NCBI GenBank assembly: GCA_023129115.1
Contig: JAGMCR010000008.1
Span: 1-62,285 of the forward strand
DNA from: Candidatus Iainarchaeum sp.
Lineage (GTDB): Archaea > B1Sed10-29 > WALL01
Length of the DNA: 62,285 nt
Reading direction: 5' to 3'
Below are positions 19,054-29,107 of the stretch, in pieces. The position numbers were made by a program, and so were the translations under genes. Each line of letters starts with the position of its first letter. Position 1 is the first letter of the stretch. Below the pieces are notes generated by a model. That model worked only from the letters and a program-made list of their open reading frames with translations, did not search any database and was not told the DNA's origin.

Positions 19054-19057
19054 GAAG

Positions 19058-19153
19058 TGGACTTGGGGGGATTTGAACCCCCGACCTCAACGTGTTCCGG
19101 AACCGCTAGCGATTCTTGCGAACGTTGCGCTCTTCCGACTGAGCTACAAGCCC
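19058..19153 (-). tRNA. tRNA-Ala(CGC) with 23-nt canonical intron (19094-19116)
   Basis: GGGCTTG/CAAGTCC acceptor stem, CAACG-TT CGC A^A-CGTTG; BHB with TTCG/CGGA helix and CAA, ACA bulges. Confidence 0.93.
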
Positions 19154-23050: not shown

Positions 23051-23356
23051 ATGGGTTTCGTTGACTTGTTTGGCGACACGACAATGTCAAGAGTCCTGGA
23101 TTTCTTGACTACTTATGAGGGGTTTGACTACTCCTTGACAGAGATGGCCAGGAATGCTGAAGTCAGTTACCGGAGTCTGCAGAGGATTTTCCCCCAGCTG
23201 GTTGAGTGGCAGTTCGTGAAGAAGACCCGCCGCATTGGCCGGGCTGAAATGTATACTGTAAACACGGACAACGAGATTGTCAAGGAATTGGATCGCCTGG
23301 CAACTGAAATTGATTTCCTGATGGTAGAGAAAAAAGCGCTTGCTGCAACTTCTTAA
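23051..23356 (+). CDS. Winged-helix protein (antitoxin/regulator-like)
   Basis: RVLDFL..FDYSLTEMARNAEVSY..TRRIGRAEMY. Confidence 0.8.
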   Translation: MGFVDLFGDTTMSRVLDFLTTYEGFDYSLTEMARNAEVSYRSLQRIFPQLVEWQFVKKTRRIGRAEMYTVNTDNEIVKELDRLATEIDFLMVEKKALAATS

Positions 23357-23362
23357 GGGGCC

Positions 23363-23413
23363 TGGTTCGAGGCCAACGCAAGCAAGGAGTACTCGGACTG
23401 GGTTTCCCGCTAA
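23363..23413 (+). pseudogene. Orphaned second copy of the cutA C-terminus
   Basis: Translates [16 protein letters not shown] versus cutA WWDAEASKEYGDWVEKS*. Confidence 0.7.
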
Positions 23414-25416
23414 AACAATGCGTACGTCGCGATTAACGGCGCGAAGACCAGCGACACAATCGACATGAGCTTCAGCAGGATGTTCAGCGACGGCCCTGAA
23501 GTGTCCTTGAACGGGTCGCCCACAGTGTCGCCAATGACTGCCGCCTGGTGCGCGAGGCTTCCCTTGCCGCCGTGGACGCCGCTCTCAATCAGCTTCTTGG
23601 CGTTGTCCCACGCGCCCCCCGCGTTCGCCATCTCTACGGCCAGCAGGAACCCCGTGACAGTCGCCCCAACCAACAGGCCGGCAAGCGCCGCCGGGCCGAA
23701 CAAGAACCCGAACGCAACCGGGCTCACGACAGCCATCACGGCCGGCGCAATCATCTGGCGCTGTGCCGCCTTCGTGCTGATGTCGACGCACTTGCGGTAG
23801 TCAGGCCTGACCGTCCCGGCGAGTATGCCCTTGTTCTTGAACTGCCTCCTGACCTCGTCAATCATGTCCTTGGCCGCGCTGCTCACGCCCAATATGGTCA
23901 GGGACGAGAACAGGAACGGCAGTGTCCCGCCGATGAAGACGCCGACCAGCACAATTGGGCTCGCCAGGCTTATGCTGGTGGGGTCGAGGCCCGCGGCCTG
24001 TATGTAGGCCGCGATGAGCGCCAGTGTCGTCAATGCCGCGCTCCCAATCGCGAACCCCTTGCCTGTCGCGGCAGTGGTGTTGCCCATGGCGTCGAGCGCG
24101 TCAGTGCGCTTGCGCACGTTCGCAGGCATCTTCGCCATCTCTGCGATGCCGCCCGCGTTGTCCGCGACCGGCCCGTACGCGTCCGTGGCCAGGGTGATGC
24201 CCAGCGTGGAGAGCATTCCGACCGCTGCAATGGCGATGCCGAACACTCCGGCGAAGTAGTACGACGCAAGCACTGCGATGGAGATTGCAATCACTGGAAT
24301 TGCGGTGGAAGCCATTCCCACGGCCAGCCCGAACATGATGTTCGTTGCCGCGCCGGTGAGTGACGCGTCCGCGATTTCTTGTGTCTTCTTGTACTGCTCT
24401 GACGTGTAGTACTCTGTGCCGAACCCAATGATGGTGCCGGCGATTAGCCCCATGAGCACAGGCACGAACAGTTGGATTGCCATGTCCGGCGCGAGCAGCT
24501 GGAGCGCCGCGTAAACGAACACGAGCATGAGCACAGCCGCGCCAATCGTGCCCTTCCTTAGGGCACTGAGGAGGGCGGCCATGCCGCCCTTCTTGAGCTT
24601 GACGAACTTGGTCGCCACGACAGAAGCGAGTATCCCGCAAGCCGCAATCGCGAACGGAATCTCAAAGCCGAGGAGCCCAAACTGCGCGACGCCGAGCGCC
24701 GCCGCGGCAATCATCGCCCCGACGTAGGACTCGAACAGGTCTGCTCCCATTCCGGCGACATCGCCCACGTTGTCGCCCACGTTGTCCGCGATGACCGCGG
24801 GGTTGCGCGGGTCGTCCTCTGGAATCCCGGCCTCTATCTTCCCGACCAGGTCAGCGCCGACGTCGGCGGCCTTGGTGTAGATGCCGCCCCCGACGCGCGC
24901 GAACAATGCAATCGAGGAGGCGCCGAACCCGAAGCCGACAATCAGCTCCGCGATTTTCGTGTAGTCAGCGGGGAAGAAGCTGTTGAGCACGAGGTAGGTC
25001 AGCGAAAGCCCAATCAGGCCAAAGCCAACCACGCACAGGCCCATTACCGCGCCGCTTGAGAACGCGACGAGAAGGCCCTTGCCCAGGCTTTTTTCTGCGG
25101 CCTCGACTGTCCTGGCGTTTGAGTTGGTCGCCATGTACATGCCGAGGAAGCCCGCGAGCCCGGACAGCACGGCGCCAAAGACGAAGGCGCCCGCCGTGAA
25201 CGGGCTGATGAAGTAGTAGAGCAGGGCAGTGATTGCGACCACGAATACGGACATGGTCAGGTACTGCCGCTTGAGGTACGCCATGGCGCCCTCGCGAATC
25301 ATTCCTGAGAGCTCGGCGGTCTTCTTGTGCCTGAGCTTCTGTTTAAGCACTTTGTTTGCGTAGTAGTAGGCCGCGCCAAGCGCTATTAGCCCAACAAGTA
25401 TTGCCAAGTAAATCAT
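23410..25416 (-). CDS. hppA: Membrane-bound ion-translocating pyrophosphatase (K+-dependent, probably Na+-pumping)
   Basis: [42 protein letters not shown]. Confidence 0.97.
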
Positions 25417-26439: not shown

Positions 26440-27090
26440 TCACTTCTTTTGTATGATGAGTTCCCAGGGATAGCGCTTTTGCATACCAAAAACTTTTTTG
26501 TCGCCTTTGCTGCCTTCACCATACCTCTTCATTAAATAATCAAAGTTTTTGAAAAACCTGTCCAGGATCCCCTCGTCGCAGACGTAATGGGGCTCTTCAG
26601 ATTCTGGGCCATGGATGCCCACGTAAACATTGGGGGCGATTTCCCTGCCTTCACTTATTTTTGGGTCCTTGTGTGAAATCATTGTCGCCACCAGTATGCC
26701 TTTTGGCTTCAGCACGCGTTCTATCTCTGAAATTGTTTTTTCGATATCCGCGTGGAGGCCGTGGAGTATAACCCCAACACTCACCACAGCGTCAAAGGAG
26801 CTGTCCGGGTAAACCAGGGAACGCATGTCACCCGCGTCTATCCGTGCCTCCAGCCCAGTTTTTTCAAGGAGCGCTTTAGTTCTCTTGACCGCTTCTTCAG
26901 AGATGTCAACCCCAGTCACGTCGAATCCCTGCTGTGCAAGGAATACGGTGTGCCTTCCAGCGCCACAGCCGTGGTCGAGGACAGTTCTCACGTTATGCTT
27001 TTTCAACACCGGAATGGAGTCCACAACAAGCTTTCTTGGCTCGGTCATTCCCAACTGGTATTTCTTGATAAACTCGTCCCAGCCACTCAC
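26440..27090 (-). CDS. Class I SAM-dependent methyltransferase
   Basis: VLDHGCGAGRH, GVDIS, FDAV, RVLKPKG. Confidence 0.92.
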   Translation of the reverse strand: MSGWDEFIKKYQLGMTEPRKLVVDSIPVLKKHNVRTVLDHGCGAGRHTVFLAQQGFDVTGVDISEEAVKRTKALLEKTGLEARIDAGDMRSLVYPDSSFDAVVSVGVILHGLHADIEKTISEIERVLKPKGILVATMISHKDPKISEGREIAPNVYVGIHGPESEEPHYVCDEGILDRFFKNFDYLMKRYGEGSKGDKKVFGMQKRYPWELIIQKK

Positions 27091-27834
27091 TCAAACTCAC
27101 CAAGCCTCGCCTGCAGCTTCTCCTCTTCCATCCGCTTGCTCGTGTCCCACGACTTCCGCGCGAACGGCGGGAGCTTGCCGTGCTCCTCGAAATAACTCTT
27201 CAAAAACTCTTTTGTCACCGGGTCCGCGGGGTAGCCACTCCCAATCTCGCCGTACTTGGCCCGTGTTTTCTTGACCCACTCGTCCCGCGCGACCTTCGCA
27301 ATAATCGACGCAGCGGAAACAATCGGGTAGTTCACGTCGGCCTTGTGCTCAGCGATTGCGTCAAAATCCGGCCCCAAGTACTTCCGCAGCCGCTGGATGA
27401 ACCTCGTTGGCTCGGTGTCGGGACAGTCGATAATGATTTTGTCCGGCTTTTCCTTCAGCCCCATAATCAGCTCGGCGATTTTCTTGGCCTCGACCTCGTT
27501 GAGCGACATGACTTTCCGCATTGAGTCAATCTCGTGCGCAGAAATCTCTATCACGGCGATTTCCTTTGCAGCGTTGCGTATTTTTGCAGCCAGTTCTTCC
27601 CTGCGCGCCGGCGTGAGCAGCTTCGAGTCCTTGCACCCCATCTCGCGGTAGCTGACGCTAGACTTCTCTGTGTCTACTACTCCGGCAATAACCATCGGGC
27701 CGAAAACGGGGCCTTTAGGAGGGGCATAAATCCTTCATCGATTTGATGATAGGTGTCTATACCCCACTTCCCGCCTCGTCACAGCCCAATATTAGAGTAT
27801 TTTTATTTTTTTGTTTGTCTCCACTTTTTTCCAT
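27087..27834 (-). CDS. rnhB: Ribonuclease HII, split gene: exon 1 27834-27767, exon 2 27714-27087
   Basis: Joined 696 nt gives MEKSGDKQKNKNTLILGCDEAGRGPVFGPMVIAG; KDSKLL, HKAD, VSAASIIAKVARD, GSGYPADP. Confidence 0.9.
27715..27766 (-). other. Putative 52-nt BHB-type intron in rnhB
   Basis: Stem GGGGTATAG/TTATGCCCC; GGGA/TCCT 4-bp helix with AG^T and AA^A bulges; carries an in-frame stop; removal restores DEAGRGP. Confidence 0.8.
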
Positions 27835-28874
27835 AATAGTCCTTCTTTCTTGACTAACCCTAATTTTTCAAGCTCTTTGAGCCTTAGTTTCGTTGTCTTG
27901 AACGCTCTATTTAACTCTTTTGCCACTTCAAACGTCCTCCTGGGCGTATCCAACGTGTCTAGAATACTCTTTTTGAGCTGAGAGATTATGATGGTATTAG
28001 AATCCATTCGAATCCAGTAAGATAAACTGCCGGATTGGTAGTTCATTATTTTCCCTTCTTTTTTCAATTCAATCAAGACGTCTTGTATCCGGGCGAAGCT
28101 CCGCTTGTACTTCTTCGAGAGAGCCCGCGCGGTCGTGGGCCCTTTCAAGTCCTTGTAGGCTTGCGTCTTCAGATAGTTGGCGCTGTAGTGCTCTTCTTTC
28201 ACTGTGCTCATCATTTCTTTGAACTTCTCGCGCTTGTCTTTGTGCAGAAGGGTCAAGCCAATCCGGTCAACAGTCCTTAAGTTGTTCAGCCCGAAAATGC
28301 TGTACATCCTGTTGCTTGGCGTGAACCTGTAGCTCAATCCGAAGTAGTCAAGCATCCTCTCAATTAAGGGGTTGGGAATGCCTTGCGATATCCTGACGGA
28401 ACGGCGGTGATGGTGCTTGAGTGAGTAGTGGATGTTACCTTCTCCAGCGAAGAATCCTTGTAGGATGTATCCATAATACTCTTCTTTTCCGCAAAAGTCC
28501 CTCACTGTTTCTTTCCATTCTTTTGCCAGTTTGGTTTTCGCCAACCTGAACAGAAGATAAGGTTTCCTTGCCCTATTGTCAATATAGCGCCTTATCCGCA
28601 CATTTTTTAGGTTTGGTGTTACTTCTTCTGCATCTTCTTTTGAATAGATGTAAACTCTCGCGTTAAATTCTTCGTCCTTGTAGTGCTCTTGGATTGTGTT
28701 CCCGAAAAACTCAACTAACTCAATACAGTTGTTTGTGAAAGTAATCTCACGAATTGTCTTGTTATCGCCTTCGGCTAGCCAGAGGCCTACACATTGTGCT
28801 ATTCGCTGGTCGGTTGGCACAGAACCCTCTTCCCCGAATACCTTTGCTGCGCTGGCGCTTAAATACTTTTTCAT
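27792..28874 (-). CDS. Free-standing double-motif LAGLIDADG endonuclease with C-terminal winged-helix domains
   Basis: CVGLWLAEGD and ILQGFFAGEGN motifs, ITFTN; C-terminal HTH-like segments; low GC; overlaps the rnhB start. Confidence 0.82.
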   Translation of the reverse strand: MKKYLSASAAKVFGEEGSVPTDQRIAQCVGLWLAEGDNKTIREITFTNNCIELVEFFGNTIQEHYKDEEFNARVYIYSKEDAEEVTPNLKNVRIRRYIDNRARKPYLLFRLAKTKLAKEWKETVRDFCGKEEYYGYILQGFFAGEGNIHYSLKHHHRRSVRISQGIPNPLIERMLDYFGLSYRFTPSNRMYSIFGLNNLRTVDRIGLTLLHKDKREKFKEMMSTVKEEHYSANYLKTQAYKDLKGPTTARALSKKYKRSFARIQDVLIELKKEGKIMNYQSGSLSYWIRMDSNTIIISQLKKSILDTLDTPRRTFEVAKELNRAFKTTKLRLKELEKLGLVKKEGLLWKKVETNKKIKIL

Positions 28875-28876
28875 GG

Positions 28877-29005
28877 GCCAAACCTTCTTTGAAATTTTTA
28901 CGGGGGCGATTTTAGCTGTTCGAGTCTTAGGATTTTCGTCCGCGAGCGAAAATTCATAAGAACGAGCAACGGCGGGAGAACCCGTAAAAATTGGGGGGGT
29001 TTGGC
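28877..29005. ncRNA. ~130-nt long hairpin immediately upstream of the endonuclease start
   Basis: GCCAAACC/GGTTTGGC, AATTTTTACGGG/CCCGTAAAAATT, TCTTA-GGATTTTCG/CGAAAATTC-A-TAAGA. Confidence 0.5.
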
Positions 29006-29107
29006 TTCAAGGTGTTAAAAGCCGAGAACAAGCATATTCCGGGATTAGGCAATAAAGCTTTATAAACCCGTTGGCGCATAAGGATACCCTCAATTCTGGT
29101 GATTACA

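Follow-up and report, generated by a model that had tools for sequence, protein, structure and literature searches.

The stretch of DNA analysed here (the window) comprises 62,285 nucleotides (nt) of Candidatus Iainarchaeum sp. (contig JAGMCR010000008.1 of assembly GCA_023129115.1). This report concerns its rnhB gene, which encodes RNase HII and in which 52 nt interrupt the codons of the catalytic motif, together with a LAGLIDADG-like open reading frame (ORF) directly upstream of it. The features on which the argument depends all lie on the minus strand:

27087..27714, minus strand: rnhB exon 2; A27714 is the third base of the Arg codon and is followed by GPVFGPM... to the stop; matched by PF01351.
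27715..27766, minus strand: predicted bulge-helix-bulge (BHB) intron of 52 nt; U27766 is a bulge nucleotide, 27765-27756 pairs with 27730-27721, UCCU lies at 27720-27717, and A27716 and A27715 are bulge nucleotides.
27767..27834, minus strand: rnhB replacement exon 1, from ATG 27834 or TTG 27789 to the AG of the Arg codon; encodes ...LILGCDEAG.
27705..27712, minus strand: exon-2 strand of the outer helix; pairs with 27773-27780 at 7/8 positions, with one A.C mismatch.
27792..28874, minus strand: LAGLIDADG-like ORF of 360 amino acids (aa), with the motifs GLWLAEGD and GFFAGEGN and C-terminal winged-helix domains.

The conventional rnhB ORF (27087-27695, minus strand, 202 aa, ATG at 27695) is the longest ORF there and encodes RNase HII. 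PF01351 (RNase_HII) matches exon 2 alone (E 3e-40, profile positions 9-198 of 199), and since this match begins at profile position 9, the catalytic D-E-A-G-R part is absent from the conventional ORF. The residues LGCDEAG are encoded upstream, in a different frame. Read along the minus strand, the 360-aa ORF (28874-27792, ending in TAA) is followed by ATA TTG GGC TGT GAC GAG GCG GGA AG, then by the 52 nt, and then by A GGC CCC GTT TTC GGC CCG ATG. The insert (27766-27715) separates GGA AG, which ends at 27767, from A GGC CCC, which starts at 27714, and splits the Arg codon of DEAGRGP; AG and A rejoined give AGA. Joining after the second nucleotide of each bulge yields 68 + 628 = 696 nt, i.e. 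231 aa with no internal stop, and unspliced read-through from ATG 27834 hits a stop at residue 26. Exon 2 translated from 27713 gives 208 residues of RNase HII; it is intact over these 208 codons, with 91% amino-acid identity to the same-genus genome G002. Compared with a hidden Markov model of 25 uninterrupted relatives, the spliced product matches positions 2-218 of 219 and the exon-2-only ORF positions 18-218. The complete RNase HII N-terminal D-E-A-G-R-G motif arises only on joining of exon 1 and exon 2 (in silico). Replacement exon 1 and the 3' end of the upstream ORF overlap, in different frames; the exon has an unusual Cys (LGCDEAG) and contains GGGA (27772-27769), the bulge nucleotides A27768/G27767 and the other strand of the outer helix (27780-27773).

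The minimum free energy (MFE) RNA fold of 27695-27790 amounts to -47.1 kcal/mol, compared with -28.4 +/- 3.1 for 200 dinucleotide shuffles (z = -6.0), none of which (0/200) is as stable. This fold has a helix between the two exons and the 4-bp helix GGGA/UCCU, the latter flanked by the bulge AGU on the 5' side and by an A-rich bulge on the 3' side. The inner helix comprises 10 bp, two of them G.U pairs, and pairing of the inner hairpin extends beyond these 10 contiguous base pairs. The core of a BHB motif, i.e. two 3-nt bulges on opposite strands and a 4-bp helix, is present in the window, with GGGA/UCCU paired at 4/4 positions and the bulges AGU and AAA. The cleavage position was taken from the canonical tRNA 37/38 case and confirmed on this genome's own tRNA introns. 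On the exon side the 3' bulge can be drawn with 4 nt or with 3 nt; in the latter case one C:G pair closes it and a 1-nt bulge follows. In the 4-nt register the outer helix has 7/8 pairs in the window and a family mean of 6.3 of 8, versus 3.8 in the strict register; since 7/8 pairs are reached only with a 4-nt 3' bulge, the motif is relaxed on the exon side. The inner helix h', 10 bp in the window, has at least 4 contiguous pairs in 86/114 family members. At gathering thresholds, Rfam found tRNAs alone across the window.

Much of this had been anticipated in an earlier reading of the same DNA (the original prediction). It had described an rnhB lacking its catalytic motif, with LGCDEAG upstream in another frame, as well as an exact DEAGRGP consensus and a 696-nt frame on cutting after the second bulge nucleotide, and the ORF list, the Pfam match and the translation agree on each point. 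The MFE fold likewise recovers the 52-nt hairpin with G-U pairs, the GGGA/TCCT helix and the bulges AGT and AAA that it had reported. The outer helix, given there as ACGAGGC/GCCCCGT and called imperfect, is indeed relaxed, but the pairing as written requires one extra unpaired G.

The insert is real DNA, a point on which the original prediction had asked for read support: a contig of 352 nt from a second sample of the same study (run X2) covers 27488-27839 with 0 differences and 0 gaps. A misassembly was considered and rejected, as this second-sample contig carries the insert unchanged. Run X1 also spans the insert; it may be the source of the window and is therefore not independent. The genome comprises 1.25 Mb in 19 contigs and is 88.6% complete. 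A search of this assembly with a protein query gave one match and no second rnhB; an intact copy elsewhere in the genome, together with decay of exon 2, is what the original prediction had named as speaking against it.

Presence and absence of the insert were compared among relatives. An rnhB match was obtained in 40 of 41 related genomes of the phylum, and 30 loci were inspected, of which 25 read M-x-x-LGIDEAGR/GPV continuously (the slash marks the site in question) and five are interrupted at the identical codon, namely the window and one same-family, two same-order and one same-class genome. Both same-genus genomes (G002, G001) are uninterrupted. The five inserts are 52, 34, 31, 31 and 36 nt long and unrelated in sequence, and each alone folds to the same architecture, with the compensatory central helices GGGA/UCCU, GGGC/GCCC, GGGC/GCCU, GGGU/GCCC and CGGC/GCCG. 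A pattern for the interrupted motif matches 5/31 phylum genomes, with 0 matches in the reversed control.

Beyond the phylum, contigs of one genome per species were searched with the pattern GACGARGCNGGNAG-N(24-54)-RGGNCCNGTNNTNGG, which matched 89 stretches, 80 of them listed; RNase HII lies directly downstream in 58 of these 80. Among the matches listed, two further ones are probably rnhB, cut by the end of the locus or by a stop, and the remaining ones are mostly bacterial, without RNase HII, i.e. chance matches. Three Corynebacterium records (L071, L084, L092) share the same 24-nt spacer with no RNase HII downstream and represent an unrelated conserved sequence, again a chance match. The pattern undercounts, since it requires GAC for Asp and AG...R for Arg. 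By our own tally of the submitters' record titles, which can err for metagenome-assembled genomes (MAGs), the 58 listed loci fall to Asgard archaea (Promethearchaeota, Hodarchaeota, Thorarchaeota; 22), Hadarchaeota (8), unlabelled archaea (8), Woesearchaeota (6), Methanosarcinales (4), Micrarchaeota (3), Nanohaloarchaea (3), Bathyarchaeia (2), Norongarragalinales (1) and Diapherotrites (1).

All fetched loci were then pooled and classified without the pattern. An rnhB N-terminal match was present in 170, of which 156 are unique: 121 interrupted, 34 uninterrupted and one unclassified (L139; interrupted by eye). Intron lengths at this site range from 20 to 52 nt in the 121 loci, that of the window being the longest, and short ORF-less introns of 30 nt dominate the Asgard-labelled loci. 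The statement of the original prediction that mRNA introns in archaea are rare agrees with the 2023 review PMC10485636; at this rnhB site, however, interruption is widespread.

The rebuilt codon specifies Arg in 121/121 interrupted loci (AGA in 115, AGG in 6); part of this set was found by the pattern demanding AG...R, and a subset that was found through the upstream ORF (the ORF-first subset, see below) is without such a constraint. Splicing would occur after the second base of the Arg codon (phase 2) in 114 loci and after the first base in five, two assignments being weak. In six metagenome loci (L132, L136, L162, L173, L193, L197), all of them ORF-linked, the predicted splice site moves forward by one base and so follows the first base of the Arg codon; the bulge there reads AAA, with a one-base shift of the central helix as well (e.g. 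CAGG/CCUG).

The central helix is paired at 4/4 positions in 97/121 loci and at 3/4 in 22/121. Two helix positions are free to vary in the 114 phase-2 introns, formed by the third base of the Ala codon and that of the Gly codon, each with its intron partner. At position 1 of the central helix we observed U-A in 34 cases, A-U in 25, G-C in 19, G-U in 12 and C-G in 11, and at position 4 U-G in 44, C-G in 29, G-C in 15, U-A in 14 and A-U in 9, so that all Watson-Crick types and G.U are represented at both. Full pairing is found in 93/114 phase-2 introns, compared with a mean of 27.5 and a maximum of 45 when partners are shuffled among loci (5000 shuffles), and in 42/48 of the ORF-first subset, which is free of any intron constraint (shuffled mean 15.4, maximum 25). 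When the 3' side is displaced by 1-3 nt, the mean number of central pairs falls from 3.82 to 1.15-2.11, and that of inner pairs from 6.0 to at most 1.2. As G.U pairs (166) far exceed A.C (25) in the phase-2 introns, the structure belongs to the sense RNA. Alignment of rnhB from relatives, which the original prediction had recommended, has thus shown both presence and absence of the intron and a covarying central helix.

Synonymous exon sites in interrupted genes are biased toward outer-helix pairing, as compared with uninterrupted genes:

N4 is C/U: 80% of interrupted and 32% of uninterrupted genes (p = 7e-6).
N5 is C/U: 91% of interrupted and 40% of uninterrupted genes (p = 2e-7).
Glu codon is GAG: 81% of interrupted and 44% of uninterrupted genes (p = 5e-4).
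N3 is C/U: 77% of interrupted and 52% of uninterrupted genes (p 0.02).

The genome encodes the machinery that such an intron would require. One EndA gene was found (171 aa; G000 contig C14, ~23102-23569), with PF01974 (4.9e-32) and PF02778 (3.8e-10), the catalytic and N-terminal domains, in one ORF. Its product aligns with the homotetrameric enzyme of M. jannaschii (1a79) over residues 9-167 (6e-28), and a second EndA subunit was not found in the genome, even at E <= 10. On its sequence, the single EndA is alpha4-like. RtcB is present (6.1e-143) and carries an intein: in its gene (G000 contig C4:41556-44339, outside the window), a single frame of 994 codons, the Pfam match is split at profile position 50 by ~1.5 kb, and this insert matches Intein_splicing (E 2e-16). 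The ligase that removal of the intron would require is hence itself interrupted by an intein.

ARAGORN with intron search reported 11 intron-bearing tRNAs, of which two with introns of more than 1 kb were dropped as implausible. Among the nine tRNA introns analysed, four have the textbook architecture of outer helix, bulge, central helix, bulge and inner helix (hBHBh'), two are partial and three poor; in the four textbook cases the central helix H is paired 4/4, the inner helix has 5-11 bp and the outer helix 4-5 bp. One tRNA gene of this kind lies in the window:

19057..19153, minus strand: tRNA-Ala(CGC) with a canonical 23-nt hBHBh' intron at 37/38; H 4/4, seven inner and five outer pairs in the strict register.

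Judged from these pairs, its precursor is a bona fide candidate substrate of EndA in the window. By default, ARAGORN labels 19057-19153 as tRNA-Leu(CAA) of 97 nt; the tRNA-Ala(CGC) reading of the intron search fits the BHB geometry. According to PMC5829648, which describes a DPANN-type L3 loop, relaxed motifs need an EndA with an extra loop, an addition present in some alpha4 enzymes, namely those of DPANN and Hadesarchaea, as well as in Asgard/TACK enzymes. The groups named there are those in which the rnhB intron was found.

Comparison with the two same-genus genomes places the intron in a larger context. BLASTN showed that the window flanks 29404-29018 and 27713-27094 lie only 15-25 nt apart in both; the window therefore carries an insertion of 1304 nt. 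Its right edge coincides with the 3' splice site, homology to the same-genus alleles resuming at 27713. The following features belong to this context:

27714..29017, minus strand: the insertion (ORF, replacement exon 1 and predicted intron), delimited by BLASTN boundaries and nucleotide alignment.
29015..29035, minus strand: relic of the ancestral rnhB 5' end, ATG CTT GTT CTC GGC TTT TAA (MLVLGF-stop); aligns with the rnhB start of G002 and G001.
29059..29066, minus strand: TTTATAAA box, TATA-like, located ~24-31 nt before the ATG of the relic; conserved in both same-genus genomes (G002, G001).

The relic in the window breaks off just before the D-E codons. The TTTATAAA box is probably the ancestral rnhB promoter, which would now drive the relic, the ORF and rnhB. 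A 41-aa ORF (MRQRVYKALL..., 28954-29079, minus strand) is conserved in the same-genus genomes (L003/L004); it is probably not a gene and owes its conservation solely to an out-of-frame overlap with the promoter and start region of rnhB. Comparable relics upstream of the ORF were seen in L064, L101, L113, L134, L158, L194 and L207; they read MIICGIDEAGK, IIVGLD, LCDEAD, MTKVLGIDEAE-stop, MSLVLGIDDD, MKILGLDE and MTLILGID-stop, with break points inside the DEAG codons. The junction between ORF and rnhB also recurs: most ORF-linked pattern-found loci have an rnhB start that shares bases with the ORF stop (ATGA or GTGA, preceded by a GGTGAT-like box), and the window and L020 resemble each other in a Lys-rich N-terminal extension, read in another frame from an ATG that lies ~45 nt before the ORF stop.

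The ORF family shares the motifs GLWLAEGDxK...TFTNN and GFFAGEGN, with E35 and E145 invariant in 11/11 aligned members; from the alignment, GLWLAEGD and GFFAGEGN are read as putative LAGLIDADG motifs. Pfam LAGLIDADG_3 is matched by 9/11 members at E <= 0.01 (best E 9e-9), and its curated cut-off is exceeded by three of five scanned members (35.9, 25.9 and 36.1 bits). All members have one or two C-terminal winged-helix domains. A large protein database holds at least 380 relatives of the ORF at E <= 1e-5, many with precomputed PF14528 and/or PF01978; they are mostly named 'hypothetical protein' or carry transcriptional-regulator labels, and one is named 'LAGLIDADG family homing endonuclease'. 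In the Atlas model of the homolog P0021, which bears this last name, residues 1-196 align to LAGLIDADG_3 clusters (TM 0.43-0.69), an intein-associated one among them. The 360-aa ORF is a putative free-standing homing endonuclease.

The ORF and the interrupted gene occur together. Directly upstream of interrupted rnhB, and on its strand, ORF homologs (37-47% identity, E down to 1e-86) were found in 14/69 unique pattern-found loci; among the uninterrupted rnhB loci of the phylum, 0/25 have one. For the converse scan of metagenomes (ORF-first), an alignment of 11 ORFs served as query; 177 relatives were obtained and 80 kept, of which five have no downstream room. All of the other 75 loci have rnhB directly downstream (75/75). 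By script and reading of the sequences, 65 of these are interrupted and 10 uninterrupted, the 65 comprising 47 with the canonical motif, 12 with DDAG/DDSG/EEAG variants and six with the splice site one base earlier. After automated de-duplication, 55/64 are interrupted.

Several observations may suggest mobility. The ORF is polymorphic for presence and absence, being absent at the homologous site in two same-genus genomes. Pairwise identities of ORF and RNase HII across 65 loci are weakly correlated (Spearman 0.38), and L188 and L197, the RNase HII sequences of which are 82% identical, have ORFs with 45% identity and different intron phases. Exon 2 of the window and of G002 share 67% identity in the first 60 nt and 78-93% in later 60-nt bins. 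Such a dip near the junction, here from a single comparison, would be the pattern expected of a co-conversion tract.

Taking this dataset together, we consider it highly probable that the 52 nt at 27715-27766 are an archaeal BHB intron in the rnhB mRNA, cut by EndA and joined by RtcB, with restoration of a 231-aa RNase HII. GGGA at the end of exon 1 would pair with UCCU at the end of the intron, flanked by the bulges AG/U and AA/A (slashes marking the cuts), by the intron hairpin and by the exon-exon helix. Cleavage by the alpha4-like EndA would follow the second nucleotide in both bulges, and ligation by RtcB would then rebuild the Arg codon of DEAGRGP. Without splicing, translation would end after 25 residues, and the sole other ORF would lack the catalytic D-E. 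The BHB reading put forward in the original prediction is strongly supported by the comparative evidence, i.e. the proportion of interrupted loci, the restored Arg, covariation, synonymous bias, and the EndA, RtcB and tRNA introns of the genome. The original prediction saw the intron alone and missed the 1.3-kb insertion with its LAGLIDADG-like ORF and replacement exon 1.

With more reserve, we favour the view that a LAGLIDADG-like endonuclease gene, replacement exon 1 and, at the 3' end, the mini-intron form one mobile cassette, which would have inserted at the DEAGR/GP codons of a formerly continuous rnhB. At this highly conserved site, intron-less rnhB would be the substrate of the endonuclease, and repair templated by the cassette allele would copy the whole unit, with relic exon 1 and exon 2 acting as homology arms. 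The intron would preserve the function of the host gene while disrupting the target site, and lineages losing the ORF would retain the short intron. Linkage to the ORF, relics, insertion polymorphism and a distribution that is patchy across phyla are together explained most economically by a homing cassette. The wider hypothesis, to which we lean by a small degree, is that of a composite selfish element that targets the active-site codons of rnhB by homing and has reached six or more archaeal phyla, Asgard archaea among them (by record titles), the short ORF-less introns of most carriers being the remains of past invasions and perhaps an immunity device.

A number of points weigh against these two readings. 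Regarding the intron, a search of sequencing runs found no RNA run that contains this locus, a result neutral as to expression and splicing; we infer cleavage and ligation of the rnhB transcript from DNA. In the strict 3-nt register the outer helix h of the window consists of one closing C:G pair followed by G.G, and the genome's own textbook tRNA introns, unlike rnhB, have a regular outer helix of 4-5 bp. Following PMC5829648, alpha4-type EndAs are the strict class unless an extra loop is present. The loci are mutually related, and the counts are per locus and not per evolutionary event; the splice phase of each locus was chosen partly by helix pairing, and the uninterrupted set of the synonymous-site test stems from a single phylum. 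A second rnhB or a second EndA subunit could sit in the missing part of the genome.

Regarding the cassette, the window's own ORF scores 14.1 bits against the 22.5-bit LAGLIDADG_3 cut-off (E 0.058), and the best LAGLIDADG match of a PDB profile search is I-SmaMI, with a sub-threshold E = 0.59. Relic-like motifs were found in 10/68 ORF-bearing loci (one of them a short-locus artefact), versus three in the reverse-strand control; a stricter motif gave four loci versus 0 in the same control. Viral contigs yielded 53 pattern matches with 0 confirmed ORF relatives, and in the plasmid collection none were found. In the de-duplicated ORF-first set, 9/64 genes are uninterrupted. Eight of these nine have the motif DD(S/A)(G/A)R, which is compatible with the homing model and not required by it; immunity by divergence of the target was considered, but the DD-type motif also occurs in eight interrupted genes. 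The ninth (L134) has the canonical DEAGRGP: here the ORF and the relic lie upstream of an uninterrupted rnhB with Arg = CGC, an exception to the protection logic which may reflect loss of the intron or a cassette without intron.

One alternative accepts a real, spliced intron and reinterprets the ORF as a domesticated LAGLIDADG plus winged-helix protein, i.e. a WhiA-like regulator or other co-expressed protein, held next to rnhB by vertical conservation of an operon. WhiA combines LAGLIDADG-like domains with a helix-turn-helix (HTH) domain, and the LAGLIDADG-like domains and HTH of the ORF resemble this architecture; one ORF member weakly matches LAGLIDADG_WhiA (E 0.0036), and several sources label ORF homologs as transcriptional regulators. 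The overlap of ORF stop and rnhB start is operon-like in many loci, nine ORF-linked genes have no intron, and between phyla ORF identity is similar to RNase HII identity. Conserved neighbours of this kind are, however, at odds with the absence of the ORF from both same-genus genomes and from 25/25 uninterrupted phylum loci, with relic exon-1 fragments that show insertion into a formerly continuous gene, and with a patchy distribution over at least six phyla (by record title). In addition, the acidic residues of both motifs are invariant, and divergence of ORF and host gene is poorly correlated, with clearly discordant pairs. We regard this alternative as unlikely.

Another possibility is that the ORF segment constitutes a second, large BHB intron joining relic exon 1 to replacement exon 1. 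PMC4496867 provides a precedent in Pyrobaculum 16S rRNA, where an intron with a homing endonuclease lies 8 nt from a mini hairpin intron, and in the window the relic MLVLG plus ...CDEAG would mimic the N-terminus of the relatives. A scan of seven relic-bearing loci, however, returned weak 3-bp candidates only, about as many as in control windows, with junctions that are inconsistent and mostly out of frame. The relic break points differ among loci, and replacement exon 1 brings a start codon of its own, which often overlaps the ORF stop. Since the scan gave no consistent BHB from relic to exon 1, the ORF segment is not taken to be a second intron, an option that we deem very improbable.

The interrupted rnhB might also be a decaying pseudogene and the insert junk, RNase HII having been lost or being encoded in the unassembled part. 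The incomplete assembly, the lack of the catalytic motif in the conventional ORF and the reduced nature of DPANN-type genomes would be in line with this. Exon 2 is nevertheless intact and close to the same-genus protein, each of the 121 inserts at this codon, which look independent of one another, restores Arg and retains a covarying BHB, and synonymous exon sites are biased toward the helix; decay would preserve none of Arg restoration, covarying BHB and synonymous bias, and this reading is rejected as having only the faintest chance of being correct. Programmed translational bypassing, as in gene 60 of phage T4, by which the ribosome would skip an insert that stays in the RNA, fits the gap of ~50 nt, the stable hairpin and an in-frame stop soon after the take-off region, but is hardly credible with a GGA take-off that has no matching landing codon, an Arg codon that bypassing could not rebuild from AG + A, and inserts of varying length (20-52 nt) that conserve BHB geometry rather than take-off and landing sites.

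Downstream of rnhB, a gene for an S-adenosylmethionine (SAM)-dependent methyltransferase of 216 aa (26440-27090, minus strand, GTG at 27090) overlaps the region of the rnhB stop codon. It is apparently absent in G002, where the rnhB homology runs directly into homology with window positions 26439-26002.

Within the full-text literature searched, a scope that leaves most subscription journals and supplements outside, we found no description of a BHB intron in rnhB or of a linked LAGLIDADG gene; PMC3082918 mentions RNase HII, homing endonuclease, archaea and intron in unrelated passages. A BHB mRNA intron and a homing endonuclease with a helper intron are kinds of element already known, and their combination in rnhB was not found described. 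If spliced as predicted, rnhB would be the third archaeal mRNA processed by EndA, after cbf5 and HVO_1309 (counted by PMC10485636), with a conserved position in a catalytic motif and structural covariation as clear as that of a curated RNA family. Expression of an enzyme of replication and repair would then depend on the tRNA-splicing machinery, here with an intein-bearing RtcB. Since gene callers truncate or split rnhB in these genomes, RNase HII will look catalytically dead or absent in many MAG annotations.

The ORF linkage, relic exons and insertion polymorphism make the movement and site choice of BHB introns directly testable. If active, the ORF family would provide new natural meganucleases aimed at a conserved site of 20-30 bp. 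If true, the homing cassette would be the first mechanism by which EndA-type introns enter and persist in protein genes, and its intron the first widely distributed one in archaeal mRNA.

Among known systems, the closest in kind are the archaeal mRNAs spliced by the tRNA endonuclease, of which PMC10485636 names cbf5 and HVO_1309 and expects more. The cbf5 pre-mRNA intron is found in Crenarchaeota (Desulfurococcales/Sulfolobales) and the other in the HVO_1309 mRNA of Haloferax volcanii (PMC10485636; PMC2738675). The likeness consists in a short intron in a coding transcript with a somewhat relaxed BHB, removed by the tRNA splicing endonuclease and ligase. Here, the host gene is rnhB, the intron lies inside the codons of the catalytic motif, splicing is a prediction, and many loci show physical linkage to a LAGLIDADG-like ORF. 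In contrast to cbf5, the rnhB intron occurs not in a small related group but in many phyla by record titles (Asgard, Hadarchaeota, several DPANN groups, Methanosarcinales, Bathyarchaeia), and the host has a single alpha4-like EndA, whereas cbf5 is linked with the (alpha-beta)2 type. With canonical hBHBh' tRNA introns at 37/38, the 3-nt bulge, 4-bp helix, 3-nt bulge and inner helix are identical; the outer helix there is the regular 5-bp anticodon stem, while that of rnhB derives from constrained coding sequence, with an A.C mismatch and an extra unpaired G.

In the 16S rRNA of Pyrobaculum oguniense, the endonuclease-encoding intron Pog.S1213 and the mini hairpin intron Pog.S1205 have been proposed to undergo co-conversion after cleavage at the mini-intron's empty site (PMC4496867). 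This pair resembles the rnhB cassette in that a LAGLIDADG gene and a short hairpin BHB intron lie a few nt apart and are thought to move together. Both elements there are rRNA introns, whereas the host here is an mRNA and the ORF segment is without a BHB of its own; the ORF lies upstream of a duplicated replacement exon 1 and is apparently co-transcribed and translationally coupled with rnhB. In collaborative homing at cyanophage psbA (PMC6083498), alleles with the intron are protected, and those lacking it are cut, where the intron would insert, by a free-standing endonuclease. There too the endonuclease gene neighbours an intron-containing gene, and on the basis of gene arrangement the same logic is proposed for the rnhB cassette. 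The psbA system is that of a phage, with an Endo VII-type nuclease and a group I intron that splices itself, whereas the rnhB locus would combine a BHB intron and a putative LAGLIDADG-type nuclease in cellular archaea, with a cassette that brings its own copy of exon 1.

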